Source of the DNA: a virus
Reading direction: 5' to 3' (one strand)
DNA: 64,000 bases
IMG/VR virus record: IMGVR_UViG_3300005536_000001
Part shown: in pieces, positions 1,451 to 54,846 of the stretch
Numbering within the stretch: position 1 is the stretch's first letter
How the letters are laid out: the number at the start of each line of letters is the position of its first letter
The notes under the pieces: model-generated
Told to the model about the DNA's origin: nothing
What the model saw: the letters and a program-made list of their open reading frames with translations, nothing else
Databases searched by the model: none
Program-made: the position numbers and the translations under genes

Positions 1451-4400
1451 GGCGTGCCACTCCCTGGTACGATGCGAACCTTCATGACTCGCTGATTTGG
1501 CTCAGACCAGTGGGGTTCTACACTGATCACTTCAAACTCAGTGCCCGGCGCGAGAACGAATTCATTCTCATTCGGGTAGTGACTGATCGGCTGGACCCAC
1601 GCCATCTTGGATCCTGCTGGCGCTTCAATCTTGAGATGAACTTGTCCTGACCACGTACCCTCGACAATGCTCGTGCTAATGACACCATCATCACGAATTG
1701 TCTTACCAGCGAGAGCTTCAAGTTGCTCGTTTGAAGTAACACCAAACGTAGCCAAATTGGTCTTGCGATAGAGCTTGATGTTCTCAGTGCTCGGCTTCAT
1801 CGCTGCTTTAATCTGCTTGATCTTAGCGATTGTGGCCGGTGAGCATGCACCAGTTCCGCGCGCACACTTATTGATTTCAGTGTACGAGCCACCGGTGTAG
1901 TTCTTAAGTGCAGCCCGCTGTGCGGCAGTCCAGGGGGGTGGGCTAAGTAGATCCATCCTTTGCTGCATATTAGTCGCCGATGCCTTCGTAAGATTTTTTG
2001 CCGGCAAATTTGACTTTGGGATATTGACTGAAGACTTTGATGCAGCAGCTACGCTTGGTGTGACTGAGCCAACCGGCGCAGAGCCACCCTTCTCCTGCGC
2101 GTACTTCATTCCTGCCTTGGTGCTCAGGAACTTGTTCATCTTTGTGGCAAATGGATTATCAGTCTTCTTTAGAAGTGACTGATCCATGATGTCGAGTGCA
2201 TCGGCCATCGACAACGAAGAATCCTTCTTCGACACTTCAAGTGCAGCATCGTAAATCTTCTTCGTGTCAGTGTGCCATTTCACACCGTTACTGCCGAAAA
2301 TCGACTGGACATACGCCTTCTGAAAAGGTGTAAACGTCTTTGGTCCACTTGGAGCAGATGGAGCAGATGGAGCAGACACAGGATAATTTTCCGTGACTGA
2401 GTTGACATCAGTTTTCACTGACCACCAGTCTGCGGCAAAGCTATCTGCCATCTTAAACGCGCCGTCTTTATCACTCTCCTGGACGACGATCCAGTTACCT
2501 TTACCATCATTAGCACGTATCTTGAACTTTCCTCCTTCACGTGTAAGCTGATACGTGCCAAAAGCATTCATCGCAATTACAGAACCAGACGGATATGAAT
2601 CTTCAAACGTTGCCTGTGTAAGAGTGACCGGCTGGTCAAGCAACGCCTTGTTGCCCATATACACATGCTTTAGTTTATTAGCCGACTTAGTTGAAGTAGA
2701 TGAATTACCCGGTGTGTTTATGCTAGACGGACTAGCGTTTTCTGGCTCATGCCACTCAATAGAAAAGTTTTGCGCCATTGCGAGTGCACCATACTGATTG
2801 GCATTCTCGGTAACGAACCAAGTGCCACTTTTTTCATCAAGTTCAAGAATTTCATACTTACCATTATTACCCCAGGCAATTTTTGTCTTGCCGTCAGGTG
2901 TAATTGCAATTGTGCTGTTTGCTGGGTAATTTTGAAAGAAGAATTCCTGCGCTAGTGTAATAGGCCTGCCTGGTTCCACAGGCGCGTACTTATCAATCGT
3001 CTTAGATGGTGCCGTAGGCGTTGATTTTGGTGTACTTACATTTGGCGCGCCTGGTGCACTTGGTGCAGTTGCCTTTGATCCTGTCTCGACAGGCGCATGC
3101 CACTTAATGTTAAGCTTTGAGACTTCTTCGGCTTCTTTGCCATCAGTAAGCCACTGTGATCCGGTCCAAACTCCAAATTCTGCATTCCACTCTTGGACTG
3201 CAATCGTGTCATTCCAAGATCTCATGATACGCTTCGTACCATCTTCGTTAACTGCCAACACTGTCTTAGGCGGGAAGTTAACGTCCTTAAACATATCTTG
3301 TGTAATGTCGATCGGCTCGCCAGCAGTCATTGGCGATGTGCTCGGAACAGTCTTGGTCTTTTGTGTTGCTAGCTTAGGTGTGTACCACTCCTTGTTGAGC
3401 GACACAATGTCGCTGTACTCATCTCCCTTTTCAAACGATGTTAGAGGTCCCCAACCACCGACCTTCTTGTTCTTCTGAACTTCAAAGTACTTACCATTGA
3501 GTGAAACGACTCGATAGTTGCCGTCCTTTGTCACAGCAATTGTCGAATACTCTGGCACATCACCAGACAATGCATCTATGATCTTAAGAGGCTTATCTGC
3601 CTCAATCAACTCCTTTTCCATCGGAATGGGTGTTATCTTAGCGACAGCGTCAGACGCGACGCCAGTGTTTGATGCTACTGGCTTAGGTGTAGCCGCTGGA
3701 ACTAGTGACTTCTTATCACTCTTTGGTGTACCAACAGACACAGCGACAGGCTCATGCCAATAAGCATCCGCTTTATCGATCGCAGCCTGTGCATCACTCA
3801 TTGATGTTTCGTTATTCTTTACCCACTTATTTTTCGCGTCCATGTGGTGAAAAGAAATCTTATCACCATGCGCAGTAATCTTTTTGGTGCCGAACGTAGA
3901 AATGGCAATGACCGAATCGTCAGGAAACTCATGTGTATCAAGATACTGCTGATCAAGATTGATTTGCTTGCCTGGCTTGATATATTTGACATCGTTCGGC
4001 AAAGTCGTTGCTGCAGACTTAACGGACTTCACTGCTGGTGCAGGTGTCTTCCGTGTAGAAGGAAGTTCGGTGTCATCACCCTTGGCTACCGGCTCATGCC
4101 ACGCCGAGTCAAAGTCGTTAACTTCCTTGTAGGCTTTCGACTTAATGGCCGTCTTCTCGGTCTTCCATGACCCATCGGCCTGCTTCTTATCGAGATCGTA
4201 TGACTTGCCATTCCAGGTGACCTTCTTATCACCATTCTTATTGACAGCAATCGTCGTGCCATCAGCGTGCTTCTTGTGAATAAGCCCGTGCGTGATCTTA
4301 AGCGATGCGCCAGATGCTGTGTCAGTAGCGACTGGTGTCGGTGCGGCTGCTGGAGTAGGTGTAGTCTTCTTATCAGTGGTGACCTTCTTGTCACCATCAT

Positions 4401-8062: not shown

Positions 8063-9424
8063 CTATCCGATCGAGCGGGACATGGAACCTCCACCTGCGA
8101 ATGAACCCATACCGCGAGGACGCGTGGCTACGATCTTGTTATGCCAAGCAGTCCACACCATAGCGTCAAGTCGGTCGGGTGAGTAATCGAGCTCAGGAGT
8201 CCAGGTGCACAACTGATCCTCAAGCTCTGGGAAAGTACCAACGTGATGCCACTGACCACGAGTGGAAAGTGCTGCAACAGGCTCGGCACGAACACGCTTA
8301 CCACGTGTTGCCACGACCATTTTCACGGGAATGGTGATACCCATTGAAAGCGCCGCGTCTCGGATTGTGACAACGGCCATTTCACCACCGTAGTTCGTCT
8401 CGACAACGATGTCGTCTGCTTCCCAGTCAATCGCCGCCTGGACTGCCCGACGACCCCATCCGGCAGGGCCGAGACGACACGTCATATCGGAAAGAACGAA
8501 ACCTTCAAAGCGCTTTTGCTTACGCTCCTTGACGATCTCATCGATGATGAACTTACCCGCGACGACGATACCTTGCTCACCAGCACCACCCGATGGGTCA
8601 ACACCGACCGTGACGCGTACAAGCTCAGGAGCTTCCTTAACACGGAAGTGATCGATGTCATCGCGTCGCCACAACGCGTTTTCATCCTGATCCATGACTT
8701 CGGCGTACAGTTCCTGTCGACCAATTTGCGTGCCTTCATAGTCCGCAAAAAGTTCGTCTCGAACGTGCTGCTCAAGGTAGGGATTATCGTGAGTCGTTGC
8801 GTGCGTGACAATGACGTTGTGCGGCGTGTTCTTAACAAGCTTCTTGATGAGCAACTTTGGCTTAGGCGTCGTACTCGCGATCCAGCGAGGTGTCTTACCG
8901 GTACGAAGACCAAACCGCATCTGCTCATAGCATTTGTCGAGATGACGCCAAGCCGCGAGTTCTTCAGCCCATACTAGGCATGTGTTACCGCCTGCGCGTA
9001 GACGTTCGATATCATCAGGCGTGGAAGCCCCGAATAGCTTCGCTTGCGAGCCGTTACTCCACTTGATAACAGTGCCGCCTAGACCTCCCGCAATACGAGA
9101 GGTCGGGTCGTTCGGTCCAATCCCCGCCGGCCCCGCGAAACACGCCTGGACAGCGTCTCCAAGCGTCGGACCAATGATACCAATCCAGTGAGGTGTGCTG
9201 CCGGGTAGACACGGCGGGCCCTTCACATGATCGATCACGTATTGCGCACACGTGCGGGTTTTTCCAGAACCACGACCCGCGTTCAAAAGCCAGCCATACC
9301 AGTTTCCAGCTGGTGGAATCTGGTGAGGGCGGGGGTTCCAACCCGGCGGGCGCTCGAGATAACTCATCAAAGCGCGTGCAGAAGCGCCAGCGACTTCGCT
9401 GCGCGTCATTCCACCGGCGGTCAT
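8063..9424 (-). CDS. terminase large subunit
   Basis: 453 aa. Walker A NAGRGSGKT. Nuclease-domain VGVDPSGG. Located upstream of the portal gene. Confidence 0.9.
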   Translation of the reverse strand: MTAGGMTRSEVAGASARALMSYLERPPGWNPRPHQIPPAGNWYGWLLNAGRGSGKTRTCAQYVIDHVKGPPCLPGSTPHWIGIIGPTLGDAVQACFAGPAGIGPNDPTSRIAGGLGGTVIKWSNGSQAKLFGASTPDDIERLRAGGNTCLVWAEELAAWRHLDKCYEQMRFGLRTGKTPRWIASTTPKPKLLIKKLVKNTPHNVIVTHATTHDNPYLEQHVRDELFADYEGTQIGRQELYAEVMDQDENALWRRDDIDHFRVKEAPELVRVTVGVDPSGGAGEQGIVVAGKFIIDEIVKERKQKRFEGFVLSDMTCRLGPAGWGRRAVQAAIDWEADDIVVETNYGGEMAVVTIRDAALSMGITIPVKMVVATRGKRVRAEPVAALSTRGQWHHVGTFPELEDQLCTWTPELDYSPDRLDAMVWTAWHNKIVATRPRGMGSFAGGGSMSRSIG

Positions 9425-10462: not shown

Positions 10463-11155
10463 TTACGCTGCCATCTGAACGGTGATGTCATCGAGTGTGA
10501 CACCGGCCATCAATTGATTGCGGTCGAACCTCGATACCTGTGAGCCAGGCATCGTGACACCAGGAATGATTTCCTCCAAGTCAAACTGGTGAATGGCGGT
10601 GCGTCCGTTAAACGTAAAGCTAGTCTTACCTGCAAATTCGTCAGGTGACTGGCCCTTCGGAGTGGCCCACTTTGCCGTGTGCCCAACCCAGAAACGAACA
10701 CGCGAATCGAGATTATCATCGACGCGTACTTTGTCACGAAGAAAGCTACCCGAACCATAGAGCATCAACGGGACTTCTGAGTGTAGCATGTACGTGGCAA
10801 TGAAGTCACGAGTCCACGCTGCCCAATCAACCTTAGCACTTCCGGCGATGTCATCAGTCGGCTCGATGTCAACAGCCGGAAAGAGATTACCAGGAAGCAT
10901 GAGGCCAAGTGCATCAATGACACTGAGCATGTCAATCGCTTCAGCATACGGTGAACGCTTCACAGCATCAACCCGATAGTACCCACCAGTAACTCGAGTA
11001 CGACTTGCGTTGATAGCATTCGTTCGTGCCATTTTATCGACACAGCCACTTCGCCAGTCCATCGCACCGATGTAGGCGAATTCGACCCAGTCAGGCATCG
11101 CTTCCCAGTTCAGATATCCCTGATAACGTGAGACGTCGATTCCACGAGTCACCAC
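10463..11155 (-). CDS. glycoside hydrolase family 25 muramidase (endolysin component)
   Basis: 230 aa. N-terminal GIDVSRYQG and EFAYIGAM motifs typical of GH25 lysozymes. Confidence 0.8.
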   Translation of the reverse strand: MVTRGIDVSRYQGYLNWEAMPDWVEFAYIGAMDWRSGCVDKMARTNAINASRTRVTGGYYRVDAVKRSPYAEAIDMLSVIDALGLMLPGNLFPAVDIEPTDDIAGSAKVDWAAWTRDFIATYMLHSEVPLMLYGSGSFLRDKVRVDDNLDSRVRFWVGHTAKWATPKGQSPDEFAGKTSFTFNGRTAIHQFDLEEIIPGVTMPGSQVSRFDRNQLMAGVTLDDITVQMAA

Positions 11156-11163
11156 TGGACCTC

Positions 11164-12378
11164 CTACTTACGACCGGGCGTGACAAGCGTGATGTGCGAA
11201 GCCGCAGGAATGTAACCAAACGGGTCAATCACGACGCTACCGCTCGGGAACGTGATGTTGGCGTATTCAGGGTGCTTCGTCGCGATGAAGAAAATGCGTG
11301 CTGTGAAAGACGAGGTGGACATGTACGGGTCCTTGCCCTCAACGATGAAGTCAGTGTGCAAGAACTTGATGCCTGCACCTGCGAGAAGATCAGCGAGTAG
11401 CATCGCGGGAGAACCTGCGGTGGAATTGACGCATGGCTTGTATGTCATACCAAAGATGGTGATTGGTAGTCCAGTGAGGCGCTGCCACTTTACGATGAGA
11501 CTTGCCTGCCACGACGCATGCGCCTGCCGCGCTGAGACGAGATACCCCATCAAGTCGACCGACATGTTGTGCTTGACTGCGAGTGCTGACATGGCAATGT
11601 TGTCACGCGGATGGCACGCTCCGCCATCACCCATTCCAGCGGTGAGATACTTCGTCGAGATGATGCGGTCAGTACCATAGCCGAGGGCGGTCGTCACCTC
11701 ATCGACGTCAGCGCCAGTGTTGTCGCACATTTCCGCCATCGTGTTGGCGAACACAATCTTCATAGTGATGAAGGTGTTGTAGGCCACCTTCGTGAGCTCT
11801 GCCGACGCGATCGAGACCACGCAAGGCGGCGAAGAATGCATGCCCTCATAGAGATCGAGGACCCGCTGTTCGTCACCCGGAGTGTCCACGCCGAGCAACA
11901 CGAATTCCGGGTTGGTGAAGTCATCGATCACGGTGCCCATGGCGATGAAGAACGGGTGATATACAAGTCGAGTGTGCACATTGAGTAGCGGACGAATGTC
12001 TCGATCAACCGTGCCAGGCAGCACAGTGGAGACGATGACAATCGTGATGTTCTTGCCCAGATCACTCGCTGTCTTGGCAATTGCACGCACCGCGTTGATG
12101 AGATAGCCATACTCGAAATCTTCAGGCTCGAAGTCATCATCCATCGCGGTTTCACCGCCAAAGTCAGCGGCATGCGGCGTCTGGACAGCGACGTACACGA
12201 CATCATCAGTGTGCTTGACAACATCATCGAGGGAATTAGTTCGTGACACAAACTTTCCCTCTTCAGTCGCGCCACCGTTGATGTCGTAACCGAGAACATC
12301 ATGCCCACCATACACGTTCAAGGCCCATGCGCACGGTAGCCCCAACTTACCAAGTCCCACCCAGCTGACCGCACTCAC
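11164..12378 (-). CDS. nucleotide-sugar dehydrogenase (UDP-glucose/GDP-mannose dehydrogenase family)
   Basis: 404 aa. Rossmann motif VGLGKLGLPCA. Catalytic-Cys motif GGACHPRDN. Confidence 0.75.
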   Translation of the reverse strand: MSAVSWVGLGKLGLPCAWALNVYGGHDVLGYDINGGATEEGKFVSRTNSLDDVVKHTDDVVYVAVQTPHAADFGGETAMDDDFEPEDFEYGYLINAVRAIAKTASDLGKNITIVIVSTVLPGTVDRDIRPLLNVHTRLVYHPFFIAMGTVIDDFTNPEFVLLGVDTPGDEQRVLDLYEGMHSSPPCVVSIASAELTKVAYNTFITMKIVFANTMAEMCDNTGADVDEVTTALGYGTDRIISTKYLTAGMGDGGACHPRDNIAMSALAVKHNMSVDLMGYLVSARQAHASWQASLIVKWQRLTGLPITIFGMTYKPCVNSTAGSPAMLLADLLAGAGIKFLHTDFIVEGKDPYMSTSSFTARIFFIATKHPEYANITFPSGSVVIDPFGYIPAASHITLVTPGRK

Positions 12379-12980
12379 GAGTTAGTCCTCCTCTTGTACA
12401 ACCCCTTGAACGGCGTTCCATCAACGGTAGACTCTACTGCCACCAGCGAGAGCTGGGGGTACTGAAACACCATCTTCGCAGGGGTCAGAGTATCCTGCAA
12501 GTGACGCTGATGGATGTTCCCGTCTTCCTCACCCTGAGGATAATCATAGGGAACGATCACGTAGTATTCAGTGCACACACGCTCAAAATCAAGCAGCATC
12601 TGCTGTGCGCGCTCGAGATCCAAGTGCTCAAGCACATCGCCAAAAATGACCACATCCCAGTGCGTGCCATCGGGGAATTGCGTGACAACATACGCGGCAT
12701 CACCGATGTACACAGTGTCATACAATTCATGAAGCCTATGTTCTTCGATGTATGGCTCGAAAATCTCGATGGCATCCATCTGTGGGTAATCGGCAAGAAG
12801 CACTCGATACTTACCCTGCCCAGCGCCAACGTCAAGGATGCGAATGTCCAGTGGGTCGTATTGACTCACCTGTCGTCGAACCTGCGCACCCGCCCAATCA
12901 TACGTACTCAGCCAGTTGTTCCGGTATGCATGCGCCATCGCATCCGAAAGATGTTCATTCACAGCTGCTCCACCAGCCAC
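12375..12980 (-). CDS. class I SAM-dependent methyltransferase
   Basis: 201 aa. Motif I ILDVGAGQGKY. Later VIFGDVLEHL. Confidence 0.7.
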   Translation of the reverse strand: MAGGAAVNEHLSDAMAHAYRNNWLSTYDWAGAQVRRQVSQYDPLDIRILDVGAGQGKYRVLLADYPQMDAIEIFEPYIEEHRLHELYDTVYIGDAAYVVTQFPDGTHWDVVIFGDVLEHLDLERAQQMLLDFERVCTEYYVIVPYDYPQGEEDGNIHQRHLQDTLTPAKMVFQYPQLSLVAVESTVDGTPFKGLYKRRTNS

Positions 12981-13933
12981 TTCACAGTCTGCTCAAGACC
13001 ATCATCAAATGAATGGGTTGGACTCCAGTCTTGATTTGGAATAAGCTCTGCGTACTTCGGATCCCAACCCGGTCGTGCATCTTCACCGCGCTGCTTAATG
13101 GTGTATGGTGCTTTACCCATCATATCACCGATGCGATTAACGAGCGACATATTATCCACGTACTCTTGCCCCTGAAGCACGATACGCTCTGGGAACTGAA
13201 ACAAATCACTCGTGTGTTCAGCATCTTCACGAAGAAGCCCGATGATGTGTTCGGTAACATTCTTCACATAGGTGTAATGCCGACCACCAGGGAAATCCGC
13301 GTAGTAATGCACGGGAATTCGAGTACCCTCGTTGATCCAGCGCACAACCTTGGGGATGAAGGCCAGCTCAGACTGCCTCTGGCCAAACATATTGGCGCTA
13401 TTGACAATCGCTACCGGAATTCGGAACGTACGCCTGTACGAGTGACAGATGTCCTCCTGAGACGCCTTAGAGGCGGCATACGGACTGCTTGGCTGGTGAT
13501 CTGCTGGGGCGCAGGGGGACGTCCGTCCGTACACCTCGTCCGTTGACATGTGAATGAATCGACGCGGTCCCGTTTCACGCGCCAATTCAAGCATGTTGAG
13601 CATCAACTGGACATTGTTGCTAATGAAGCCAACAGGGTCTTTAATGCTTGCCTCGACCTGACTCATCGACGCGATGTTCACGATGTAGTCAATGTCACCG
13701 ATAAAATCAAACTGCTGATTGCGAAATGGCACCGAGAGATCATGTGTCATGTGCGAAACACCACGACCAGCCTGTCGCAAATCGGACATAGCCTGCATCG
13801 TTGACCGGACATTCCCGTTATGCCAGGCCTTGAGGGAATCAATGCAGACGACATCCCAGTCAGTCTTCTGCAACACCGTCTCGAGGACATGACTCCCCAC
13901 GAATCCAGCAGTGCCTGTGATAAGTACTCTCAC
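12959..13933 (-). CDS. NAD-dependent sugar epimerase/dehydratase (SDR family)
   Basis: 324 aa. MRVLITGTAGFVGSHV glycine-rich loop. YAASKAS (YxxxK) catalytic motif. Confidence 0.85.
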   Translation of the reverse strand: MRVLITGTAGFVGSHVLETVLQKTDWDVVCIDSLKAWHNGNVRSTMQAMSDLRQAGRGVSHMTHDLSVPFRNQQFDFIGDIDYIVNIASMSQVEASIKDPVGFISNNVQLMLNMLELARETGPRRFIHMSTDEVYGRTSPCAPADHQPSSPYAASKASQEDICHSYRRTFRIPVAIVNSANMFGQRQSELAFIPKVVRWINEGTRIPVHYYADFPGGRHYTYVKNVTEHIIGLLREDAEHTSDLFQFPERIVLQGQEYVDNMSLVNRIGDMMGKAPYTIKQRGEDARPGWDPKYAELIPNQDWSPTHSFDDGLEQTVKWLVEQL

Positions 13934-14586
13934 GTGGAACTCCCCGGGTGATATGAGAAGTAAGGGCTATTGACGACAACACGCGTGTGCTGCTTCGCAG
14001 ACACAGGCACAGATCCCGGCTGCCATGTGCTGTCACCACTGGACGAGTAATATTCGTACATGATGCGATCGATGTAGTGTTCGGTGATGGCGAGACCACG
14101 CATCTGATCACACCACGCAACATCCTCAGGCGGCACAGTCTTTCGGAAATCAGCCTGCTTGGCAAGCTGCAACCTCACTGGATTGAGGTGACTCACATCG
14201 CGATAGTAGCCCTCATGATCATCCCACCAGTGATCAAACTGCAAGCTGTGGTATGTCGGCTTAAGTGGATTCCCGTCGATGTACGTCTGCATCCGCCAGC
14301 CAATGTAATCAACACCGTCAAGTCGGCTCACGATTTCGTCGACGAAATAGTGCGGCACGATGTCGTCATCATCGATGAACGAAACGTACTCACCATCAGC
14401 ACGCTCGATAAGCGATTGCCGAATGTGCGACAGCGAGTGCTCACCATTGTTCCACAACGCTGTGACGATGACATCACCATCGTACTTATCAACCTGTGGC
14501 ATGAGGATATCGATAAGGCGCTTAAACCGATCACCTCGCTGTCCAAGAGTCGCAATCAGGATGTTCCACTTAGGCGACACACGCAC
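13930..14586 (-). CDS. glycosyltransferase (GT-A fold, DxD)
   Basis: 218 aa. WNILIATLGQR N-terminus and VSFIDDDD motif. 4-nt overlap with the downstream gene. Confidence 0.7.
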   Translation of the reverse strand: MRVSPKWNILIATLGQRGDRFKRLIDILMPQVDKYDGDVIVTALWNNGEHSLSHIRQSLIERADGEYVSFIDDDDIVPHYFVDEIVSRLDGVDYIGWRMQTYIDGNPLKPTYHSLQFDHWWDDHEGYYRDVSHLNPVRLQLAKQADFRKTVPPEDVAWCDQMRGLAITEHYIDRIMYEYYSSSGDSTWQPGSVPVSAKQHTRVVVNSPYFSYHPGSST

Positions 14587-14588
14587 TC

Positions 14589-15278
14589 CTAGGCAGTGAA
14601 CGCAGCGATAGCTGCTCGTAGCTTGTTGGCATCCTCGAGACGCTCATGCGCCTTGGAATTGTAAATCGCCTGGACGTTATCCTGCTGATGACGGGCGAGC
14701 CGCTCGTTGTGCGTCGTGTCCCATGGCCCCTTGTTCACAACAGGATGCATGTGCTCGGTGTAGACGTGGTGCAGGTAGGTTCGCCGGCCAATCGTATCAG
14801 CGACTTCAGTGTTCCATGAGTCGTTGTAGTCGGAGCTGAAGTATGGTGGAACCAGGTAGCCTAGTGTGTCAGTCCAGCGGCGATGATAAAAGCCGTGCGT
14901 GGCGAGGTTCGCATCTTGATAGCCATCACGGCCATGGACGAGCACGATCTTGTCGGGAATGCGTGCGAACGCGTCAAGCACGTGTGAGTCCCAGCCTTCC
15001 GATCGGAAGATGATGTCGTCACCACAATGCATGAAGATATCGCTATCCTCATTCGCCTGCATCCAGCAGGCGTTCCACATCTCCGAGAGGATGATGCGCG
15101 GACCAACGACAGCCTTGACGTCAAGACGCTCAGCCATCTCGTAAGATGCCATGTCGTCTTCATCGATGTAGAAGACGAACTCCAGGTCGTCCGGCATTGT
15201 CGCTGTCTTGCGTGCCGAGGTAACCATACGCTGCATGCTGTCGGGACGACCACGCGTGGGGCAAAGAATGCTGATCAT
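14589..15278 (-). CDS. glycosyltransferase-like protein
   Basis: 229 aa. ISILCPTRGRP N-terminus and FVFYIDEDD acidic motif. Confidence 0.6.
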   Translation of the reverse strand: MISILCPTRGRPDSMQRMVTSARKTATMPDDLEFVFYIDEDDMASYEMAERLDVKAVVGPRIILSEMWNACWMQANEDSDIFMHCGDDIIFRSEGWDSHVLDAFARIPDKIVLVHGRDGYQDANLATHGFYHRRWTDTLGYLVPPYFSSDYNDSWNTEVADTIGRRTYLHHVYTEHMHPVVNKGPWDTTHNERLARHQQDNVQAIYNSKAHERLEDANKLRAAIAAFTA

Positions 15279-15297
15279 GTCTTCTCCTTGATGCGAA

Positions 15298-15332
15298 AGT
15301 GCCCGGTCCAGCGGGTTGCTGAACCGGGCACT
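15298..15332 (-). terminator. strong hairpin inside glycosylation operon (possible attenuator or processing site)
   Basis: AGTGCCCGGTCCAGC-GGGTT-GCTGAACCGGGCACT: 14 bp stem with one mismatch. On the minus strand it is followed by UUUCGC and then the RBS AAGGAGAAG of the next gene. Confidence 0.5.
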
Positions 15333-15341
15333 CAGATGAAC

Positions 15342-15974
15342 TTACTTCCAGGCCCTGCCGCTAGTGTGGTTCCCGTGCCAGACCCAGCGCCACGTACGCC
15401 TAGGCGCGTGTACGAACTTCGCGCCTTCACGCAACATCTTCTGCCAGCAGCCCCAGTCCTCGTTGGTTTCGTTCGGCCACTCCTCGGTGCCAGGCTGCGG
15501 GAAGCCACCAACCTTCTCGAGCATTGAGCGCTTCACGAGAACCGTGATGGGAATGAAGTTGCCCTCGGTCATGATGTACCGAGCAGCATCATCACCGAAT
15601 GGAACACCGAGGGGCGAGACGTACTTCCCGTTGTGGAGAACCGAGAGCGGGTCCGGTCCTTCCCACAAGTCAAACCATGGGTACACCAGGTCGGCACCCG
15701 TTGCCTCAGCGGTCTGGAGCAGGAACTCGAGATGATTGGGGTAGATGACATCATCGTCATCGACGAAGGCGATCCAGTCGGTGTCAGGATGCGAGAGCTG
15801 CCACGCCATGTTGCGATTCTTCGCCGCGCCAAGACCTTCGGTGTCGACACGAACGATGATCTCGTCGGCTTGACGTATTTGTGTTTGCACTGACCGAACG
15901 GCACGCTCGAGCATCTCCTCCCGACTAGGAATCGTGGGAATACAAACGGCGATCGTTGCTGCCATGAGTCTCAC
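15342..15974 (-). CDS. glycosyltransferase family 2
   Basis: 210 aa. IAVCIPTIPSR N-terminus. WIAFVDDDDVIYPNHL DxD motif. Confidence 0.8.
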   Translation of the reverse strand: MRLMAATIAVCIPTIPSREEMLERAVRSVQTQIRQADEIIVRVDTEGLGAAKNRNMAWQLSHPDTDWIAFVDDDDVIYPNHLEFLLQTAEATGADLVYPWFDLWEGPDPLSVLHNGKYVSPLGVPFGDDAARYIMTEGNFIPITVLVKRSMLEKVGGFPQPGTEEWPNETNEDWGCWQKMLREGAKFVHAPRRTWRWVWHGNHTSGRAWK

Positions 15975-20637: not shown

Positions 20638-20654
20638 GCTCTCCTCGTTCCGAT

Positions 20655-20704
20655 GTCCTCATCAGCGTGAGACTTACTCACGGACGCCTCCCGGCGTTTC
20701 GGAC
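20655..20704 (-). ncRNA. type II hammerhead ribozyme, copy A (50 nt)
   Basis: Minus strand: GUCC-GAAAC-GCC-GGGA-GGC-GUC|CGUGAG-UAAGU-CUCACG-CUGAUGA-GGAC. All core nucleotides present. Predicted cleavage between 20683 and 20682. Confidence 0.85.
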
Positions 20705-20710
20705 TGTAAC

Positions 20711-21366: not shown

Positions 21367-21780
21367 TCAGTCCTCCGAGAAGACGACGTGGTCCATTCCT
21401 TCCCAGTTGTCCACGCCCGCGGCTTCCATGGCCGTCAGACGAGCGTCACGCCGGCGCCACTCCTTGACCTGTTCGGCGCTGACGTACACGCTGTCCCCGG
21501 TCGTGAGGCGCCTGTATGACTGCTCGACCAAGCGCAGCGTCAGCAGCTCTTCATCGTTGGCTAGTGTCCTCACACCCATGTCAGAGAGCGTGTTGGCCCT
21601 GCCGCCGGCAAGCCTCGTCAGCTGGTCGCTCGCCCACTCGGCGAGATCAATGGTCGCAGCCACGGCCTCACTCGGGTAGAAGCGATAGTTATCACAACCG
21701 CGTTCAATGGTGCGCTCCATCCGCACGCTCCCCTCTGCGTGGCCATTCGACTCCACGATCAGCGTGACCTTCACGGACAT
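21367..21780 (-). CDS. hypothetical protein
   Basis: 137 aa ORF. RBS GGGAGA. Confidence 0.6.
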   Translation of the reverse strand: MSVKVTLIVESNGHAEGSVRMERTIERGCDNYRFYPSEAVAATIDLAEWASDQLTRLAGGRANTLSDMGVRTLANDEELLTLRLVEQSYRRLTTGDSVYVSAEQVKEWRRRDARLTAMEAAGVDNWEGMDHVVFSED

Positions 21781-21791
21781 GATATCTCCCT

Positions 21792-21841
21792 GGACTCGTC
21801 AGGACACGCATCACGTGTCGACCCCTCCCGGGGTTTCGTCC
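21792..21841 (-). ncRNA. type II hammerhead ribozyme, copy B (50 nt)
   Basis: GGAC-GAAAC-CCC-GGGA-GGG-GUC|GACACG-UGAUG-CGUGUC-CUGACGA-GUCC. N7 is C, which the consensus allows. Cleavage between 21820 and 21819. Confidence 0.85.
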
Positions 21842-21843
21842 TT

Positions 21844-23026: not shown

Positions 23027-23044
23027 CAGTCTATCCTCACTCTT

Positions 23045-23094
23045 GGCCTCATCAGGCAGCGCGTCACGCTGCGACGTCTCCCGACGTTTCGGCC
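23045..23094 (-). ncRNA. type II hammerhead ribozyme, copy C (50 nt)
   Basis: GGCC-GAAAC-GUC-GGGA-GAC-GUC|GCAGCG-UGACG-CGCUGC-CUGAUGA-GGCC. Cleavage between 23073 and 23072. Confidence 0.85.
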
Positions 23095-23099
23095 TTCAG

Positions 23100-23682: not shown

Positions 23683-23696
23683 GCTCTCCTCTTTCC

Positions 23697-23746
23697 GGCC
23701 TCATCAGTGCCAGCATCACTGGCAGACTCCTCACGGAGTTTCGGCC
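23697..23746 (-). ncRNA. type II hammerhead ribozyme, copy D (50 nt)
   Basis: GGCC-GAAAC-UCC-GUGA-GGA-GUC|UGCCAG-UGAUG-CUGGCA-CUGAUGA-GGCC. Cleavage between 23725 and 23724. Confidence 0.85.
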
Positions 23747-23752
23747 TTACAT

Positions 23753-23938: not shown

Positions 23939-23954
23939 GATATTCTCCTCACGT

Positions 23955-24004
23955 GGGCTCATCAGCAGCGGCATCACCGCTGGACACCTCTCGGTGTTTC
24001 GCCC
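23955..24004 (-). ncRNA. type II hammerhead ribozyme, copy E (50 nt)
   Basis: GGGC-GAAAC-ACC-GAGA-GGU-GUC|CAGCGG-UGAUG-CCGCUG-CUGAUGA-GCCC. Cleavage between 23983 and 23982. Confidence 0.85.
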
Positions 24005-24014
24005 TGCACGACCA

Positions 24015-30915: not shown

Positions 30916-31317
30916 TCACTTATCTTTGAAGAAGTCGGTGACAGTTTGCCCGTCGATGGAGCCTGCCTGAATCAGCGGGCCGTTCACCTCGCCGTTGACG
31001 ACGTTGTGCACGCCCCCCTGGACATGCTCACGCTTCACCGGCGCCGGGCTGGGCTTGATCGCGAAGTCCAGTGGGAGAGTGCTTGCCACCACCTTGTGCT
31101 CACCCGCGGCGAACCACACAGTGAAGCCACCCGGGCGAACCTGATCGCGTAACGTACACGTCGCCTTACGCTGGTTCGATCCTGCAGTGGGGTGCTCGAT
31201 GTGATGGATGCGTACCCACGCACGACCATGCTTCACAAGCATGCCCGCAGCAAGCTCACGCTGCTGGACCTTGACCTTTCGTTCGAACACGCTCTCCTCG
31301 ATTCCTAGGGGTCTCAT
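30916..31317 (-). CDS. hypothetical protein (start uncertain)
   Basis: ORF 30916..31347. The ATG at 31317 lies inside the ribozyme-like CCGAUGA box. Alternative in-frame GTG at 31290 follows GAGGAGAG. Confidence 0.5.
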   Translation of the reverse strand: MRPLGIEESVFERKVKVQQRELAAGMLVKHGRAWVRIHHIEHPTAGSNQRKATCTLRDQVRPGGFTVWFAAGEHKVVASTLPLDFAIKPSPAPVKREHVQGGVHNVVNGEVNGPLIQAGSIDGQTVTDFFKDK

Positions 31318-31364
31318 CGGGCCGGTCTCTTTCCCGGCGACGCCCACGTGCAGGCGTTTCGACC
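31310..31364 (-). ncRNA. hammerhead-like element, copy F (core variant CCGAUGA)
   Basis: GGUC-GAAAC-GCC-(8 nt)-GGC-GUC|GCCGG-(8 nt)-CCGGC-CCGAUGA-GACC. Same architecture as the other copies but with U4 changed to C. Possibly a weak or decayed copy. Confidence 0.4.
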
Positions 31365-31428
31365 AGTTAACGAGTATCCTACCACGTGCATTTCATTCGG
31401 TGAGGAAGGCGACATCGGCCGCCCTCAC

Positions 31429-32821: not shown

Positions 32822-32856
32822 GCTCTCCTTGTGCTCGTGATTTCGGTACTAAGACT

Positions 32857-34593: not shown

Positions 34594-34908
34594 TTAACAG
34601 CCGCAGCCGGTGTTCTTCGTCTTACCGCAGCGGTAACAGAACTTGTCTTGGGGATCGGGCATGGTGCTCTCCTTGTTTCCGTTGATCTCGTCGTCCATCT
34701 CACCGATCATCTTCGCGAGTACGGCGTGACGGCGAACCTGCACCATCATCAACTTCGTCACCGCAGAGATGAGGTGCGTGGTGCGAACCTCGACCGTGTC
34801 AATCTCGACACCGTCAAGATCGAACACCCGAATCGTCGATGTGCCCGTGATGTCACTCGGGTCGAAATCAATTCGACATAAGTGATGTCGAACACTGGCC
34901 ACAATCAT
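34594..34908 (-). CDS. hypothetical protein with C-terminal CxxC...CGC tail
   Basis: ORF 34594..34926. The track ATG is the AUG of the CUGAUGA box. ATG at 34908 or GTG at 34902 follows GGAGAGG. An internal AAGGAGAGCACCATG precedes the last 22 codons. Confidence 0.55.
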   Translation of the reverse strand: MIVASVRHHLCRIDFDPSDITGTSTIRVFDLDGVEIDTVEVRTTHLISAVTKLMMVQVRRHAVLAKMIGEMDDEINGNKESTMPDPQDKFCYRCGKTKNTGCGC

Positions 34909-34918
34909 CCTCTCCATC

Positions 34919-34980
34919 GGACTCATCAGCGTGCGCTTTACGCACGGACTACATCACCTCACGGTGGTGTAGTTTCGTCC
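34919..34980 (-). ncRNA. type II hammerhead ribozyme, copy G (62 nt)
   Basis: GGAC-GAAAC-UACACCACC-GUGA-GGUGAUGUA-GUC|CGUGCG-UAAAG-CGCACG-CUGAUGA-GUCC. Cleavage between 34947 and 34946. The 5' end abuts a TAG stop. Confidence 0.85.
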
Positions 34981-35156
34981 TAGTAATCTTCATCAATGAC
35001 GGTGATGAGCACCCTACCTGCATCTCCACCCGCTGATGCGATCACTGACTTAAGAACGTTAACCGCATCATTCCCATCAACACCCCACGCAGAAATCTCA
35101 TGCTGCGTGTTATCCTCACGCACAACCAGAAGAACATACTTCGTCGTAGGCATCAT
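34980..35156 (-). CDS. 58 aa hypothetical protein (cassette paralog 1)
   Basis: MMPTTKYVLLVVREDNTQHEISAWGVDGNDAVNVLKSVIASAGGDAGRVLITVIDEDY. RBS AGGAGAG. Bracketed by ribozymes H and G. Confidence 0.5.
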   Translation of the reverse strand: MMPTTKYVLLVVREDNTQHEISAWGVDGNDAVNVLKSVIASAGGDAGRVLITVIDEDY

Positions 35157-35171
35157 GCTCTCCTAACACCT

Positions 35172-35233
35172 GGACTCATCAGCGCGGCAGTAAGCCGCGG
35201 ACCACGTCATCTCCCGATGATGTAGTTTCGTCC
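35172..35233 (-). ncRNA. type II hammerhead ribozyme, copy H (62 nt)
   Basis: GGAC-GAAAC-UACAUCAUC-GGGA-GAUGACGUG-GUC|CGCGGC-UUACU-GCCGCG-CUGAUGA-GUCC. Cleavage between 35200 and 35199. Confidence 0.85.
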
Positions 35234-35406
35234 TAGTAGAGCGCGGCGGTGATCGACTTCACTGCCTCGTTGTTACCGTCAACTGCCTTGATGAAGTGTC
35301 GCACAGTGTCGATGGCGTCATCCTCACTCTCCGCGAAAACGAAAAACTCGTGACTGGCACCGAACGCACCGGTGACAATATTCACCATGTACTTACGATT
35401 CATCAT
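35233..35406 (-). CDS. 57 aa hypothetical protein (cassette paralog 2)
   Basis: MMNRKYMVNIVTGAFGASHEFFVFAESEDDAIDTVRHFIKAVDGNNEAVKSITAALY. RBS AGGAGAG. Bracketed by ribozymes I and H. Confidence 0.5.
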   Translation of the reverse strand: MMNRKYMVNIVTGAFGASHEFFVFAESEDDAIDTVRHFIKAVDGNNEAVKSITAALY

Positions 35407-35423
35407 GCTCTCCTAAACTCTCT

Positions 35424-35486
35424 GGACTCATCAGCATGGCAGCGAGCCATGGACCTGCGTCACCTCCCGGCAATGCGGTTTCGTCC
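35424..35486 (-). ncRNA. type II hammerhead ribozyme, copy I (63 nt)
   Basis: GGAC-GAAAC-CGCAUUGCC-GGGA-GGUGACGCAG-GUC|CAUGGC-UCGCU-GCCAUG-CUGAUGA-GUCC. Cleavage between 35452 and 35451. Confidence 0.8.
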
Positions 35487-35659
35487 TAGCCGTCGATGTC
35501 GACCATCACGTCGTACACGTTCCTGGTGTCGCCACCGAAGGCCTTGGCCATACGCGTCACGACGGCGACCGCAGCTTCCCGGCTCTCAGCGCGCGTGAAC
35601 ACCTCGATTGGCTCGTCGTGCTGGGTAACGAAGATGTGGAGTACGTAGCGCTCGCTCAT
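35486..35659 (-). CDS. 57 aa hypothetical protein (cassette paralog 3)
   Basis: ORF 35486..35722 trimmed to the ATG at 35659, which follows AAGGAGAG. Sequence MSERYVLHIFVTQHDEPIEVFTRAESREAAVAVVTRMAKAFGGDTRNVYDVMVDIDG. Confidence 0.55.
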   Translation of the reverse strand: MSERYVLHIFVTQHDEPIEVFTRAESREAAVAVVTRMAKAFGGDTRNVYDVMVDIDG

Positions 35660-35708
35660 GATTCTCTCCTTGTGTCCTGCACCCGGGCTGTTTTCCGGTG
35701 CTAAGACT

Positions 35709-35738
35709 ACAGTATCAAGCAATCATACGTATGTACAA
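35709..35738 (-). promoter_or_regulatory. promoter TTGTAC-18-TACTGT
   Basis: Minus-strand read, with the conserved AGTCTTAGCACCG leader. Confidence 0.55.
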
Positions 35739-35759
35739 CACAACTTGTGTGAACTTACG

Positions 35760-35933
35760 TCACTTGCCCGGCCTGAGCACCTCCGCCAACACCAGGGCGT
35801 AGAACTGCTCGGACCCCGGTTCGACGCTCGCGTGGATGTCTGAGACAGCCTGTTCGGCCCACGCAGCGAGGTTGGCTCGCAGACCAAGAGGATCATCACC
35901 GATCCAGAGAAGCAACTGGTCACGACTTGACAT
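35760..35933 (-). CDS. 57 aa hypothetical protein (LLxW(I/V)GDD...FYALVLE family)
   Basis: ORF 35760..35963 trimmed to the ATG at 35933. Paralog of 35920..36117. Confidence 0.5.
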   Translation of the reverse strand: MSSRDQLLLWIGDDPLGLRANLAAWAEQAVSDIHASVEPGSEQFYALVLAEVLRPGK

Positions 35934-36117
35934 CTTCGCCACTATCATCACCCCCAAGCACACGCTCGAGAACGAGTGCGTAAAAGCCCTCGCTTCGGTA
36001 CGGCACCGTGCACGTGTCCATGATGAAAATCATCGCGCCGTAAGCAATGTGCTTACGCGAGGTGTCATCACCTACCCAGGCGAGAAGTCGCTCCCGATTT
36101 TTCAGCTTCTCCATCAT
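35920..36117 (-). CDS. hypothetical protein (LLAWVGDD...FYALVLE family)
   Basis: 65 aa ORF. ATG overlaps the upstream stop. Confidence 0.55.
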   Translation of the reverse strand: MMEKLKNRERLLAWVGDDTSRKHIAYGAMIFIMDTCTVPYRSEGFYALVLERVLGGDDSGEDVKS

Positions 36118-36439: not shown

Positions 36440-36452
36440 ACGTTCTCCCTCT

Positions 36453-36514
36453 GGACTCGTCAGCACGGGCCTTACCCGTGGACGCGAACGCTTCCCAGCG
36501 TGCGCGTTTCGTCC
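36453..36514 (-). ncRNA. type II hammerhead ribozyme, copy J (62 nt)
   Basis: GGAC-GAAAC-GCGCACGC-UGGGAA-GCGUUCGC-GUC|CACGGG-UAAGG-CCCGUG-CUGACGA-GUCC. Cleavage between 36481 and 36480. Confidence 0.85.
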
Positions 36515-36527
36515 TTAGCCTAGGCTA

Positions 36528-36668
36528 CTAGTACCAGCCCTGCCCTGAGCAGGTGTTGCACTCGTCGCCATCGGGGCTGACGCCCGAGCCACCGCAGTCA
36601 GGACACTTCTTCTTCGGACTGTGTAGTCCCAGTGCCACAGGCAGGGTCAGCACGTTCTCAGGAATCAT
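36528..36668 (-). CDS. 46 aa DnaJ-type zinc-finger micro-protein
   Basis: MIPENVLTLPVALGLHSPKKKCPDCGGSGVSPDGDECNTCSGQGWY (CxxCxGxG twice). RBS GAGGAGAG. Bracketed by ribozymes K and J. Confidence 0.5.
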   Translation of the reverse strand: MIPENVLTLPVALGLHSPKKKCPDCGGSGVSPDGDECNTCSGQGWY

Positions 36669-36685
36669 CTTGCTCTCCTCACATC

Positions 36686-36745
36686 GGACTCATCAGTGCG
36701 GGCTTCACCCGCAGACCCGCTGCCTCACGACTGTGGGTTTCGTCC
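36686..36745 (-). ncRNA. type II hammerhead ribozyme, copy K (60 nt)
   Basis: GGAC-GAAAC-CCACAGUC-GUGA-GGCAGCGG-GUC|UGCGGG-UGAAG-CCCGCA-CUGAUGA-GUCC. Stem III is imperfect. Cleavage between 36714 and 36713. Confidence 0.75.
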
Positions 36746-36755
36746 TGGGCGGTGA

Positions 36756-38677: not shown

Positions 38678-38712
38678 GTTGCTCTCCTAAAGTCTTTTAC
38701 GGTGTTAAGACT

Positions 38713-39058: not shown

Positions 39059-39095
39059 CGTGCTCTCCTAAGTTCTGGTTTTCGGTGCTAAGACA

Positions 39096-50611: not shown

Positions 50612-51790
50612 GTGGAACAGATCAACGATAAGCTCGTCAACTTCGCGTCCATTCTCGAAGACCAGACACGCAAGCAGGCCGAGCAGACTTCAACGATGCC
50701 GTTCATCCACCCACACGTTACGCTCATGCCCGACGCGCATCTCGGCCGTGGAAGTACCGTCGGCTCCGTGATTCCGACGCTCGGTGCCATCATGCCAGCA
50801 GCGGTCGGCGTGGATATCGGGTGTGGAATGATCGCAGTGCGCACGCAGTTCACCAAGCATGACTTCACGGAATCCGAGAAGTCTCTCACGGCGCTTCGGG
50901 AGCTGATCGAAGCAACCATCCCGACGTCGGCCGGCAAGTACAACACGGAACTCACGAACACCGCCAAGTTGCGCATTGACATCCTCAAGAGGAAGGCTCT
51001 CGAGTCCGCCGAGTTCAACCCGAGCGACTACTCGCACAACTGGGAACTCCAGCTTGGCACTTTGGGTGGCGGCAACCACTTCATCGAGATCACCATCGAC
51101 GAAATGGATCGCGTGTGGCTCTTTCTCCACTCGGGCTCACGCGGTGTTGGCAACAAGATCGCGCAGCGACACATCAAGATCGCGGCGCAGCAGTGCGAGA
51201 AGCGATGGATCAGCCTTCCGAACCCGGACCTCGCGTACCTCGTCGAGGGTGAGCCCGAGTTCTGGCGCTACATCCGCGAGATGCGGTGGGCTCAGGAGTT
51301 CGCATGGATGAACCGCGAAGAGATGATGGATCGTCTCATGCTGTGTGTTGAGGAGTGGAGTGGTGAATCGATCGAGGTGCAGGACACGGTGAACTGTCAC
51401 CATAACTACACCATGTCCGAAAAGCACTTCGGCAAGCAGGTGTGGCTGTCTCGCAAGGGTGCCATTGATGCGTCACTTGGTACCATGGGTCTCATCCCAG
51501 GTTCGATGGGAACGGCATCGTACGTGGTCGAGGGCAAGGGCAATCACGTCTCGCTCAACTCTTCACCACACGGCGCGGGACGCAACTTCTCGCGTAAGGA
51601 GGCACGGAAGATGTTTACGCATGACGATCTTCGTGAAGCGATGAAGGGCATCGAGTATCGTGACTCCGCGGCGTTCGTGGACGAGATCCCCGGCGCGTAC
51701 AAGGACATCGACGTCGTGATGGCCGATTCCACCGATCTCGTCACCGTCAAGCACACGCTTCATCAGATTCTCAATGTGAAGGGCGACTAA
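50612..51790 (+). CDS. rtcB: RNA ligase RtcB (3'-phosphate/2',3'-cyclic phosphate to 5'-OH)
   Basis: 392 aa. GTG follows AGGAGAG. Motifs DAHLGRGSTVGSV, GVDIGCGM, GGGNHFIE, HSGSRGVGN, CHHNY, GSMGTASYVV, SSPHGAGR. Confidence 0.9.
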   Translation: MEQINDKLVNFASILEDQTRKQAEQTSTMPFIHPHVTLMPDAHLGRGSTVGSVIPTLGAIMPAAVGVDIGCGMIAVRTQFTKHDFTESEKSLTALRELIEATIPTSAGKYNTELTNTAKLRIDILKRKALESAEFNPSDYSHNWELQLGTLGGGNHFIEITIDEMDRVWLFLHSGSRGVGNKIAQRHIKIAAQQCEKRWISLPNPDLAYLVEGEPEFWRYIREMRWAQEFAWMNREEMMDRLMLCVEEWSGESIEVQDTVNCHHNYTMSEKHFGKQVWLSRKGAIDASLGTMGLIPGSMGTASYVVEGKGNHVSLNSSPHGAGRNFSRKEARKMFTHDDLREAMKGIEYRDSAAFVDEIPGAYKDIDVVMADSTDLVTVKHTLHQILNVKGD

Positions 51791-54765: not shown

Positions 54766-54837
54766 CGACACGTAGCTCACTTGGCAGAGCAACAGACTAT
54801 TAATCTGTATGAACCGGTTCGAATCCGGTCGTGACAA
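54766..54837 (+). tRNA. tRNA with anticodon loop CTATTAA (anticodon ATT)
   Basis: 72 nt cloverleaf. D arm GCTC-ACTTGGCA-GAGC. Anticodon stem ACAGA/TCTGT. T arm ACCGG-TTCGAAT-CCGGT. Acceptor CGACACG/CGTGACA has C1-A72 and A3-A70 mismatches. Confidence 0.55.
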
Positions 54838-54846
54838 CACTTCTAT

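Follow-up and report, generated by a model that had tools for sequence, protein, structure and literature searches.

On the minus strand of the 64,000-nucleotide (nt) stretch IMGVR_UViG_3300005536_000001 (hereafter the window, to which coordinates refer unless a contig is named), three type II hammerhead ribozymes at 34915-35488 alternate with three small paralogous genes. They are part of a set of ten canonical type II hammerheads, all on the minus strand, which together with one degenerate copy are sense-strand, intergenic elements (10-11 copies in ~16 kb) in the genome of a soil phage, identified as a tailed double-stranded DNA (dsDNA) phage by PHROG matches to portal, large terminase, primase and DNA polymerase. 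The explanation that we favor, and regard as the likely one, is that active type II hammerheads in the intergenic spacers of early or accessory operons cut the phage message co-transcriptionally into monocistronic messenger RNAs (mRNAs). The motif itself, its structure and covariation, its placement, the paralogy of the bracketed genes and the variation in their copy number are plain from the data, and from them we infer cleavage itself, product release, mRNA stabilization and insulation. An earlier note had described tandem ribozyme-gene cassettes in this region and likened their RNAs to hammerhead-bounded circular RNAs; its observation is confirmed here with small corrections, and its interpretation is partly supported.

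Organization of the ribozyme array

Read 5' to 3' on the minus strand, the region comprises a promoter-like stretch with a leader, open reading frame 3 (ORF3), hammerhead I, ORF2, hammerhead H, ORF1, hammerhead G and a gene of ~102 amino acids (aa). The three-gene array is headed by an AT-rich segment (35660-35745) that combines a conserved leader, GTCTTAGCACCGGAAAAC, with what we read as a promoter-like element, TTGTAC-N18-TACTGT. ORF3 (57 aa; 35486-35659), the first array gene, lacks an upstream hammerhead: covariance model R1, described below, gives no match there, and the promoter-like leader takes its place. The likely start codon of ORF3 is the ATG at 35659, so that the array end at 35722 given previously goes back to a spurious upstream TTG.

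Hammerhead I (35420-35488), which scores 64.0 bits with R1, has its predicted cleavage site at 35452/35451 and an extended stem III with an A.C mismatch and a bulged A; hammerhead H (35168-35235; 65.2 bits) would be cut at 35200/35199, and for both copies the minimum free energy (MFE) fold of the element itself is the hammerhead. Hammerhead G (34915-34982; cleavage site 34947/34946) reaches 70.2 bits and a fold z-score of -4.1. Between I and H lies ORF2 (57 aa; 35233-35406), which is missing from the two-cassette relatives L001-L008, and between H and G lies ORF1 (58 aa; 34980-35156). The ~102-aa gene (34594-34905) is directly 3' of hammerhead G; relatives have an unrelated 44-aa gene instead. 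The cleavage-site spacings of 253 and 252 nt reported in the earlier note can be read directly from the sequence and are exact. Of the three unit cassettes that it proposed, the three ORFs and the three ribozymes are present, but only two units are bounded by hammerheads on both sides (35451-35200 and 35199-34947), since the upstream-most ORF lies behind the promoter-like leader.

All three hammerheads share the same order of elements, namely A-GGAC (the 5' strand of stem II), GAAAC, a stem III hairpin with a GNRA loop, the GUC that precedes the cut, a stem I hairpin of 6 bp with a 5-nt loop, CUGAUGA and GUCC (the 3' strand of stem II). A TAG stop codon stands at the following ribozyme in every case, as had been noted; rather than merely abutting the ribozyme, it shares one base with stem II (CTAGGACGAAAC) in G, H and I. 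An AGGAGAG Shine-Dalgarno sequence follows 7-10 nt 3' of stem II. The uniform start context "AGGAGAGCAUCAUG" proposed previously does not hold, as the contexts differ among the ORFs: AGGAGAGCAUGAUG after H and I, AGGAGAGAAUCAUG for the first ORF and GGAGAGGAUGAUUGUG after G.

The leader motif GTCTTARCACCGRAAA was found on the minus strand at 35692-35707, 39079-39094, 38696-38711 and 32840-32855, and also at 8205-8222 of the related contig L002, in which the promoter-leader arrangement before the array is likewise present. Five matches were counted against 0.99 expected, and the motif sits just 3' of sigma-70-like -35/-10 hexamers. It has the appearance of a conserved promoter element or transcript leader and stands at the head of gene blocks that lack a hammerhead.

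Just upstream of the array, a second tandem pair of small paralogs (35760-35963 and 35920-36117, minus strand; 67 and 65 aa) has the pattern LL.W.GDD ... FYALVL..VL in common, with no hammerhead between its members. Ribozyme cassettes are thus not the only genes of this region to have been duplicated in tandem.

Structural evidence for type II hammerheads

With Rfam clan CL00010 as the reference for the hammerhead class, the catalytic core is canonical in all ten copies (C3 U4 G5 A6 N7 G8 A9, G12 A13 A14, A15.1-U16.1, C17 and G10.1-C11.1). Each copy carries the strings CUGA[U/C]GA and GAAA, with GUC before the cut, whereas the eleventh copy departs from them at U4C, and the closing pairs A-U and G-C are invariant across the ten aligned copies. 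All copies have type II topology: loops cap stems I and III, and stem II is open. This open stem measures exactly 4 bp in 10/10 and follows an invariant unpaired A.

In the alignment of the ten copies (A1) under a hand-drawn structure, 96.6% of the cells are paired and compensatory changes occur at 15 of the 21 pairs, including all six in stem I and two in stem II. No shuffle out of 500 matched these covariation values, and when the 3' partners were displaced by one to three columns, pairing fell to 25-42%. The covariance model built from the ten copies, R1, was scanned over the whole window with filters off (128 kb). All ten scored 64-79 bits (E 1e-16 to 1e-20), and the only other match with E<0.1 was the eleventh copy. 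Folded individually, nine of the ten adopt a three-way junction as their MFE structure, and copy 23041-23096 folds otherwise. The ten-copy array is far beyond chance. Placement is equally regular: nine copies start no more than 13 nt from an upstream stop codon, the exception being 23041-23096 (~105 nt), and the distance from the ribozyme end to a start codon with a Shine-Dalgarno sequence is 11-18 nt in all ten. In core sequence, helices and covariation the motifs are those of hammerheads, in agreement with the earlier identification.

At gathering thresholds, Rfam reports only tRNA in the window. A "type III" match from a permissive Rfam scan, which spanned an ORF, was rejected because it combined the halves of two adjacent ribozymes and its junction strands were not contiguous. 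No type I or III hammerhead candidates and no other ribozyme classes were found in the window. A reading of the repeats as integron-like attC sites was likewise discarded: the conserved bases are those of the hammerhead core, and the strand is always sense.

Paralogous units and variation in copy number

The three ORFs align collinearly over their full length with 23-27% amino acid and 49-54% nucleotide identity, and their Smith-Waterman z-scores against 2000 shuffles are 4.2, 4.5 and 7.1. These alignments, and a profile of the three that finds relatives, bear out the suggestion that they are diverged paralogs. Among the ribozymes, G, H and I resemble one another most closely (68-78% identity), as duplication of whole cassettes would have it. 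Considering that this identity exceeds the 49-54% of the ORFs, ORF and ribozyme were duplicated as one unit, with the ribozyme under tighter constraint.

The profile recovers near-identical proteins in soil and rhizosphere metagenomes, among them P0001, which is near-identical to ORF3, as well as more distant relatives of 57-60 aa (P0004 and P0006-P0009); a search with P0007 matched no viral locus. A confident AlphaFold2 model of ORF1, computed from a small alignment, has a pLDDT of 93.7 and a beta-beta-alpha-beta arrangement. Foldseek found nothing significant for this model in PDB or BFVD (best E 0.056 and 0.013, respectively); the sub-significant matches are generic small beta-beta-alpha-beta proteins, including the phage inhibitors T7 Gp2 and Dmd, and are only suggestive. 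Searches of the paralogs and the other bracketed ORFs with Pfam and PHROGs returned nothing but a weak DnaJ zinc-finger match. As far as the model indicates, the three paralogs are real, small, folded proteins of a kind typical of phage early genes.

The number of paralog units varies among relatives: one in L134, two in L001-L008 and three in the window and L129-L132. In L134, a more distant relative, a single paralog is followed by a hammerhead (3001-3248). The contigs L001-L008 are ~91-93% identical to the window and differ from it and from L129-L132 by exactly one hammerhead-to-hammerhead unit. Their single internal ribozyme (e.g., L001 9911-9990) is chimeric, with a stem III like that of copy I and a stem I identical to that of copy H, and in alignment A5 the identity steps from ~78% to ~98% between the two stems; a recombination junction thus adjoins the cleavage site. 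Similarity blocks also break at hammerhead edges (36753, 36448, 35240 and 34919), and L002 has, after the zinc-finger gene, an additional 37-aa gene with its own extra hammerhead (8673-8948). The upstream hammerhead copy of L002 has a weakened stem II, with UGAU in place of GGAC.

These indels and breakpoints would also be expected if the repeats acted mainly as DNA, that is, as 60-70 bp intergenic patches of homology for recombination, duplication and deletion, with RNA cleavage secondary or incidental. The exact one-unit difference, the chimeric ribozyme with its identity switch, the second indel of one gene plus one hammerhead in L002 and the block ends at hammerhead edges all speak for this alternative. 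Nevertheless, we consider it unlikely, because selection evidently acts on RNA structure: the stems covary around a catalytic core that alone is fixed, every copy is on the sense strand, and homology would need neither a perfect catalytic core nor a GUC triplet. Mosaic junctions at gene boundaries are in any case usual in phages, and the tandem pair at 35760-35963/35920-36117 has no ribozyme between its members. Recombination at the DNA level is better viewed as a by-product, one that fits in with RNA processing.

Constraint on the RNA is visible among the relatives as well. The hammerheads are kept in relatives that are 8-10% diverged, and orthologous ribozymes in 92%-identical relatives hold their fold through compensatory changes. 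For example, the copy-H orthologue of L129-L131 keeps its fold through a double change from U-A to C-G in stem III and a change from G-C to G.U in stem I, and its H17 change from C to U converts the triplet GUC to GUU, which the hammerhead consensus allows.

Proposed processing into single-gene mRNAs

Under the explanation that we favor, hammerhead cleavage into single-gene mRNAs, the operon would first be transcribed, the three-paralog array from the promoter-like element at ~35745-35700. Each ribozyme of 56-69 nt would then fold locally and cut after GUC. Considering that stems I and III are both closed hairpins, only stem II joins the products, which favors release; held by these 4 bp alone, the products would separate and cleavage would be effectively irreversible. 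Each cistron would thereby become its own mRNA. Such an mRNA would begin with a 5' hydroxyl (5'-OH) and the stem I hairpin, after which the single-stranded CUGAUGAGUCC leads to the Shine-Dalgarno sequence; past the stop codon it would close with the stem III hairpin, which is capped by its GNRA loop and ends in a 2',3'-cyclic phosphate. ORF3, which lies behind a promoter leader without a ribozyme, is arranged as the single-gene-mRNA model predicts.

In bacterial RNA decay, RNase E and RNase J sense a 5'-monophosphate, and hairpins block 3' exonucleases. The predicted ends should therefore resist 5'-monophosphate-dependent RNase E/J and 3' exonucleases, and expression of the genes would be uncoupled from that of their neighbors. 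In this respect the array may do naturally what synthetic ribozyme insulators (RiboJ and its relatives), reportedly described by Lou et al. in 2012, do by design. In both, a self-cleaving ribozyme just 5' of the ribosome-binding site would strip the upstream RNA context and leave a 5'-OH and a 5' hairpin. The synthetic parts are engineered from a satellite-RNA hammerhead and used singly, whereas those of the phage are natural and arrayed and would in addition provide a 3' hairpin for the upstream cistron. As an evolutionary consequence, a gene with its ribozyme may behave as a portable cassette because the pair is self-contained, and tandem duplication of ORF plus ribozyme gave rise to the 57-58 aa paralogs.

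Several points weigh against this explanation. The Rfam model Hammerhead_II (RF02276) gives only 27.6, 24.9 and 20.8 bits, for short-stem copies only, against a gathering threshold of 37; copies G, H and I do not appear among its matches. These low scores are attributable to the longer stem I and the 3' tail that the Rfam model expects, and the core is not the reason. Fast natural hammerheads usually carry a loop I/stem II contact or a pseudoknot, which allows fast cleavage at low Mg2+. Inspection of the present copies identified neither a loop I/stem II tertiary contact nor a pseudoknot, there being no 4-bp complementarity between the loop I consensus URANG and the stem II flanks, so that activity at physiological Mg2+ is assumed; contacts of another kind may exist. 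Cleavage of these particular copies is proposed from sequence, and stabilization by a 5'-OH and terminal hairpins from general knowledge of RNA decay. In addition, folding could be disturbed by ribosomes that terminate where the stop codon runs into stem II, and the phage-encoded RtcB might undo the cuts or join the pieces differently.

The scores below the Rfam gathering thresholds and the missing recognized tertiary contact are also the two observations that would favor a reading of the motifs as inactive relics or chance look-alikes. Ten perfect cores with pervasive compensatory change, the retention of the motifs in relatives 8-10% diverged and the occurrence of the identical core pattern in at least 120 viral contigs make that reading highly improbable.

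Other hammerheads and genes of the window

The hammerheads of the window form two structural subfamilies, with mean identities of ~0.68 within each and 0.56 between them. Five copies at 34.9-36.7 kb have a stem III of 10-11 bp with an internal mismatch, often A.C, and five at 20.6-24.0 kb have a stem III of 5 bp. Besides G, H and I, the long-stem group includes the type II hammerheads at 36682-36747 (66.8 bits with R1), upstream of a zinc-finger micro-gene, and at 36449-36516 (68.3 bits), the latter with the core CUGACGA. Between these two lies the gene for a 46-aa CxxCxGxG micro-protein (36528-36668), which matches Pfam DnaJ_CXXCXGXG with E 1e-5, below the family cut-off. In the short-stem group, the type II copies at 23951-24006 (76 bits) and 23693-23748 (79.3 bits) bracket a 61-aa basic ORF that starts near 23938 and ends with a stop at 23753, and the latter copy together with that at 23041-23096 (76 bits) brackets a 160-aa gene. 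The remaining two are the copy at 21788-21843 (core CUGACGA; 78.7 bits), directly upstream of a gene at 21367-21780, and the copy at 20651-20706 (75.4 bits), in which GUCC and GGAC of stem II are swapped. All these features are on the minus strand. The two further bracketed units listed in the earlier note, 23982-23725 (258 nt, 61-aa basic ORF) and 36713-36481 (233 nt, CxxCxGxG, 46 aa), proved exact.

The degenerate eleventh hammerhead (31300-31372, minus strand; R1 27.5 bits, E 1.3e-5) has the core CCGAUGA, an 8-nt loop I and a 5-bp stem I, and lies between a stop codon and the ribosome-binding site GAGGAGAG. On account of the U4C change in its core, this copy is probably crippled, a decaying variant whose activity would be weak, slow or absent.

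Alternatively, the ribozymes might be conditional switches, whose cleavage would be modulated by terminating ribosomes, by Mg2+ or by a phage or host protein bound to the extended stem III with its conserved A.C mismatch, so that the ratio of polycistronic to monocistronic RNA shifts during infection. In favor of this, most copies have a stop codon that touches or overlaps stem II, there are two structural subfamilies (at 20-24 kb with a short stem III, at 34.9-36.7 kb with a long one that contains a mismatch) and one U4C variant, and regulated cleavage was raised for phage variants by Perreault et al. 2011 (PLoS Comput Biol, PMC3088659). On the other hand, the copies are minimal ribozymes with canonical cores and no ligand-binding or extra domain, and nothing in the sequence data requires regulation; we rate the chances of this alternative as rather slim.

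The genes delimited by the ribozymes look like early or anti-defense cargo. This impression, gained from sequence matches, is due to a T7 gp5.9-like RecBCD-inhibitor domain (Pfam PF25708, E 1.3e-9) in the gene at 21367-21780 (minus strand), to the recurrence of DUF932 proteins next to hammerheads elsewhere, and to the presence of ardA among the bracketed genes of Perreault et al. 2011 (PMC3088659). The DUF932 protein, of ~320 aa, is encoded directly 3' of a type II hammerhead in L014, L017, L020, L024, L036 and about ten other IMG/VR loci on unrelated contigs, the copy in L020 matching PF06067 with E 4e-65.

Elsewhere in the genome, a block of sugar-modifying genes beside the structural genes (10463-15974, minus strand) encodes a UDP-glucose dehydrogenase-like protein, an NAD-dependent epimerase/dehydratase, two family 2 glycosyltransferases and a methyltransferase, and a GH25 lysozyme is also present there. 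The portal protein is only ~30% identical to actinophage portals, and megablast against isolated phages returned no close relative.

RtcB and possible circular RNAs

By hammerhead chemistry, double cleavage is predicted to release RNAs of 252-253 nt with a 5'-OH and a 2',3'-cyclic phosphate, as the earlier note had proposed. The same genome encodes an RtcB RNA ligase on the plus strand (50612-51790; Pfam PF01139, 391.7 bits, E 7e-117), whose catalytic Cys and His columns are invariant in alignment A6. RtcB joins 2',3'-cyclic phosphate or 3'-phosphate ends to 5'-OH ends, which are the ends of hammerhead products. The enzyme may act on the ribozyme products or just serve in tRNA repair.

Doubly cut units might accordingly be sealed, by the phage RtcB or by hammerhead self-ligation, into exonuclease-resistant translatable circles of ~250 nt with ribosome-binding site, ORF and stop codon, or the flanking pieces might be rejoined. 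Besides the presence in the window of a ligase for hammerhead-type ends, the MFE and centroid folds of both excised units support this idea: GUCC and GGAC pair across the ORF and rebuild a nicked three-way junction, with the ends joined through the 4-bp stem II (fold z-scores -2.9 and -1.8). In addition, the nearest non-trivial relative of the RtcB (L144, 73% identity) has type II hammerheads within 10 kb of it. Several observations speak against it. The end-joining stem II measures only 4 bp in 10/10, and in L129-L131 the additional long-range pairs that span ORF2 (unit I-H) are disrupted, with no compensatory change. ORF3, the first paralog, cannot be circularized because it has no 5' ribozyme; bracketed units elsewhere range from 46 to 523 aa, which indicates no constraint on size; and the units are not identical repeats but paralogs that diverged long ago. 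Contig L133, 515 nt long, runs collinear with the genome and shows no permutation. Furthermore, when Perreault et al. 2011 (PMC3088659) took up the possibility that tandem phage hammerheads yield circles or spliced RNAs, their search for such products detected none.

The genomic distribution of RtcB also speaks against such a role. Hammerheads occurred within +/-10 kb in only one (L144) of 80 RtcB-centered viral loci (1.41 Mb), so that a general association between RtcB and hammerheads was rejected; type I/III candidates were absent from these 80 loci, against seven in the hammerhead-centered loci. RtcB was not found in 134 hammerhead-centered loci, a comparison that has no power. RtcB is common in actinophages with tightly packed genes: it occurs in 710 of 50,697 phage records, mostly actinophages, and the closest isolates, 60% identical, are cluster-K-like mycobacteriophages. 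The single tRNA gene lying 3 kb downstream of RtcB (tRNA-Asn with the unusual anticodon AUU, A at position 34; 54766-54838, plus strand) fits the usual role in tRNA repair. Taken as a whole, the formation of circles or rejoined flanks appears improbable, and we hold it to be quite improbable that the hammerhead battery and the phage's own RtcB act together so that the released 252-/253-nt RNAs are sealed as circular mRNAs or the cut operon RNA is rejoined in new combinations. If true, viroid-like and retrozyme circles would have a protein-coding equivalent that is encoded by a DNA phage.

The analogy with viroid-like RNAs and retrozymes drawn in the earlier note extends to tandem units of a few hundred nt that are delimited by hammerheads and to monomers with a 5'-OH and a 2',3'-cyclic phosphate that an RtcB-type or tRNA ligase can circularize (de la Pena et al., PMC4918200, PMC7229834, PMC7761336). 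Those systems use type III (plants, infectious RNAs) or type I (animals) ribozymes in near-identical repeats, and their RNAs are non-coding or replicative, adopt rod-like or branched compact folds and spread by RNA replication or retrotransposition. By contrast, all copies in the window are type II, and the units, at 49-54% nucleotide and 23-27% amino acid identity between ORFs, are diverged protein-coding paralogs in a dsDNA phage operon, in which no conserved end-joining structure was seen. No machinery for such RNA replication and no reverse transcriptase was seen among the proteins scanned with Pfam or PHROGs, a set that leaves many small ORFs unscanned. With type II topology, a 4-bp stem II, old diverged paralogs, a first paralog that has no ribozyme and a long-range pairing across ORF2 that is not conserved, the analogy does not hold.

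Distribution and comparison with known arrangements

Hammerhead-separated small phage genes are an already known kind of arrangement. A search of IMG/VR with the pattern GGACGAAAC-N20-50-CTGATGAGTCC returned at least 120 contigs. Among the matches listed, R1 detected 147 hammerheads in the first 80 loci, and a structural scanner found up to ten ribozymes within 5-6 kb (e.g., L099 and L116). For 240 type II hammerheads from 119 viral loci among these matches, an upstream stop codon lies within -8 to +10 nt of stem II in 81%, and a Shine-Dalgarno sequence with a start codon follows within 80 nt downstream in 90%; the same matches contain 57 single ORFs of 46-523 aa that are exactly bracketed by two hammerheads. 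A BLASTP search for paralogous ORFs within the loci of other hammerhead arrays gave no pairs at E<=1e-3, a test too insensitive to recover even the paralogs of the window.

Perreault et al. 2011 (PMC3088659) reported that prophage hammerheads often occur several together, flanking individual genes or short gene blocks, with tandem arrangements in Clostridium scindens, Azorhizobium caulinodans and Agrobacterium tumefaciens. Three tandem arrangements were cleaved in vitro at every site, one cleaves in E. coli, and the proposed role was processing into single-gene mRNAs. The window shares with these clusters natural type II (and, in their case, other) hammerheads that phage DNA carries between genes on the sense strand, with several to an operon and individual genes bracketed by them, and in both settings anti-defense genes are bracketed (ardA there and the gp5.9-like RecBCD-inhibitor domain here). 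It differs in having 10-11 copies in ~16 kb of one phage, a stem II that is always 4 bp, no detectable pseudoknot and scores below the Rfam type II threshold, and in its three consecutive paralogous units, whose copy number varies among relatives, with RtcB in the same genome. Copy-number variation (1, 2, 3) of ORF-plus-ribozyme units is new here, as is a mosaic junction inside a ribozyme; the tandem duplication of these units and the co-residence of hammerhead arrays with RtcB are noteworthy.

Phage morons and integron cassettes offer a further parallel, by analogy only, in that small accessory genes with flanking signals are gained, lost and duplicated as units. Morons are bounded by a promoter and a terminator, and integron cassettes by attC sites recombined by IntI, whereas the boundary in the present array is a catalytic RNA motif. 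No attC core (GTTRRRY) was seen in the repeats, and no integrase turned up among the scanned proteins.

Significance for phage gene expression and evolution

Why phages carry many hammerheads has been an open question since 2011, and a 2019 review still listed the function of phage hammerheads as open. This genome offers a compact test bed, with ten canonical copies in two subfamilies, a co-resident RtcB and natural variants of one, two and three units, and ORF3, a paralog expected to be expressed from a promoter leader without a ribozyme, provides a natural negative control. Arrays of this kind are probably under-annotated because they are missed by Rfam thresholds, and routine annotation would therefore overlook copies such as these. 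The invariant 4-bp stem II design suggests natural, compact and fast-releasing insulator parts. The genome could show whether cleavage insulates and stabilizes single-gene mRNAs for small early or anti-defense proteins, and whether ribozyme-delimited genes form a cassette system that aids phage mosaicism.

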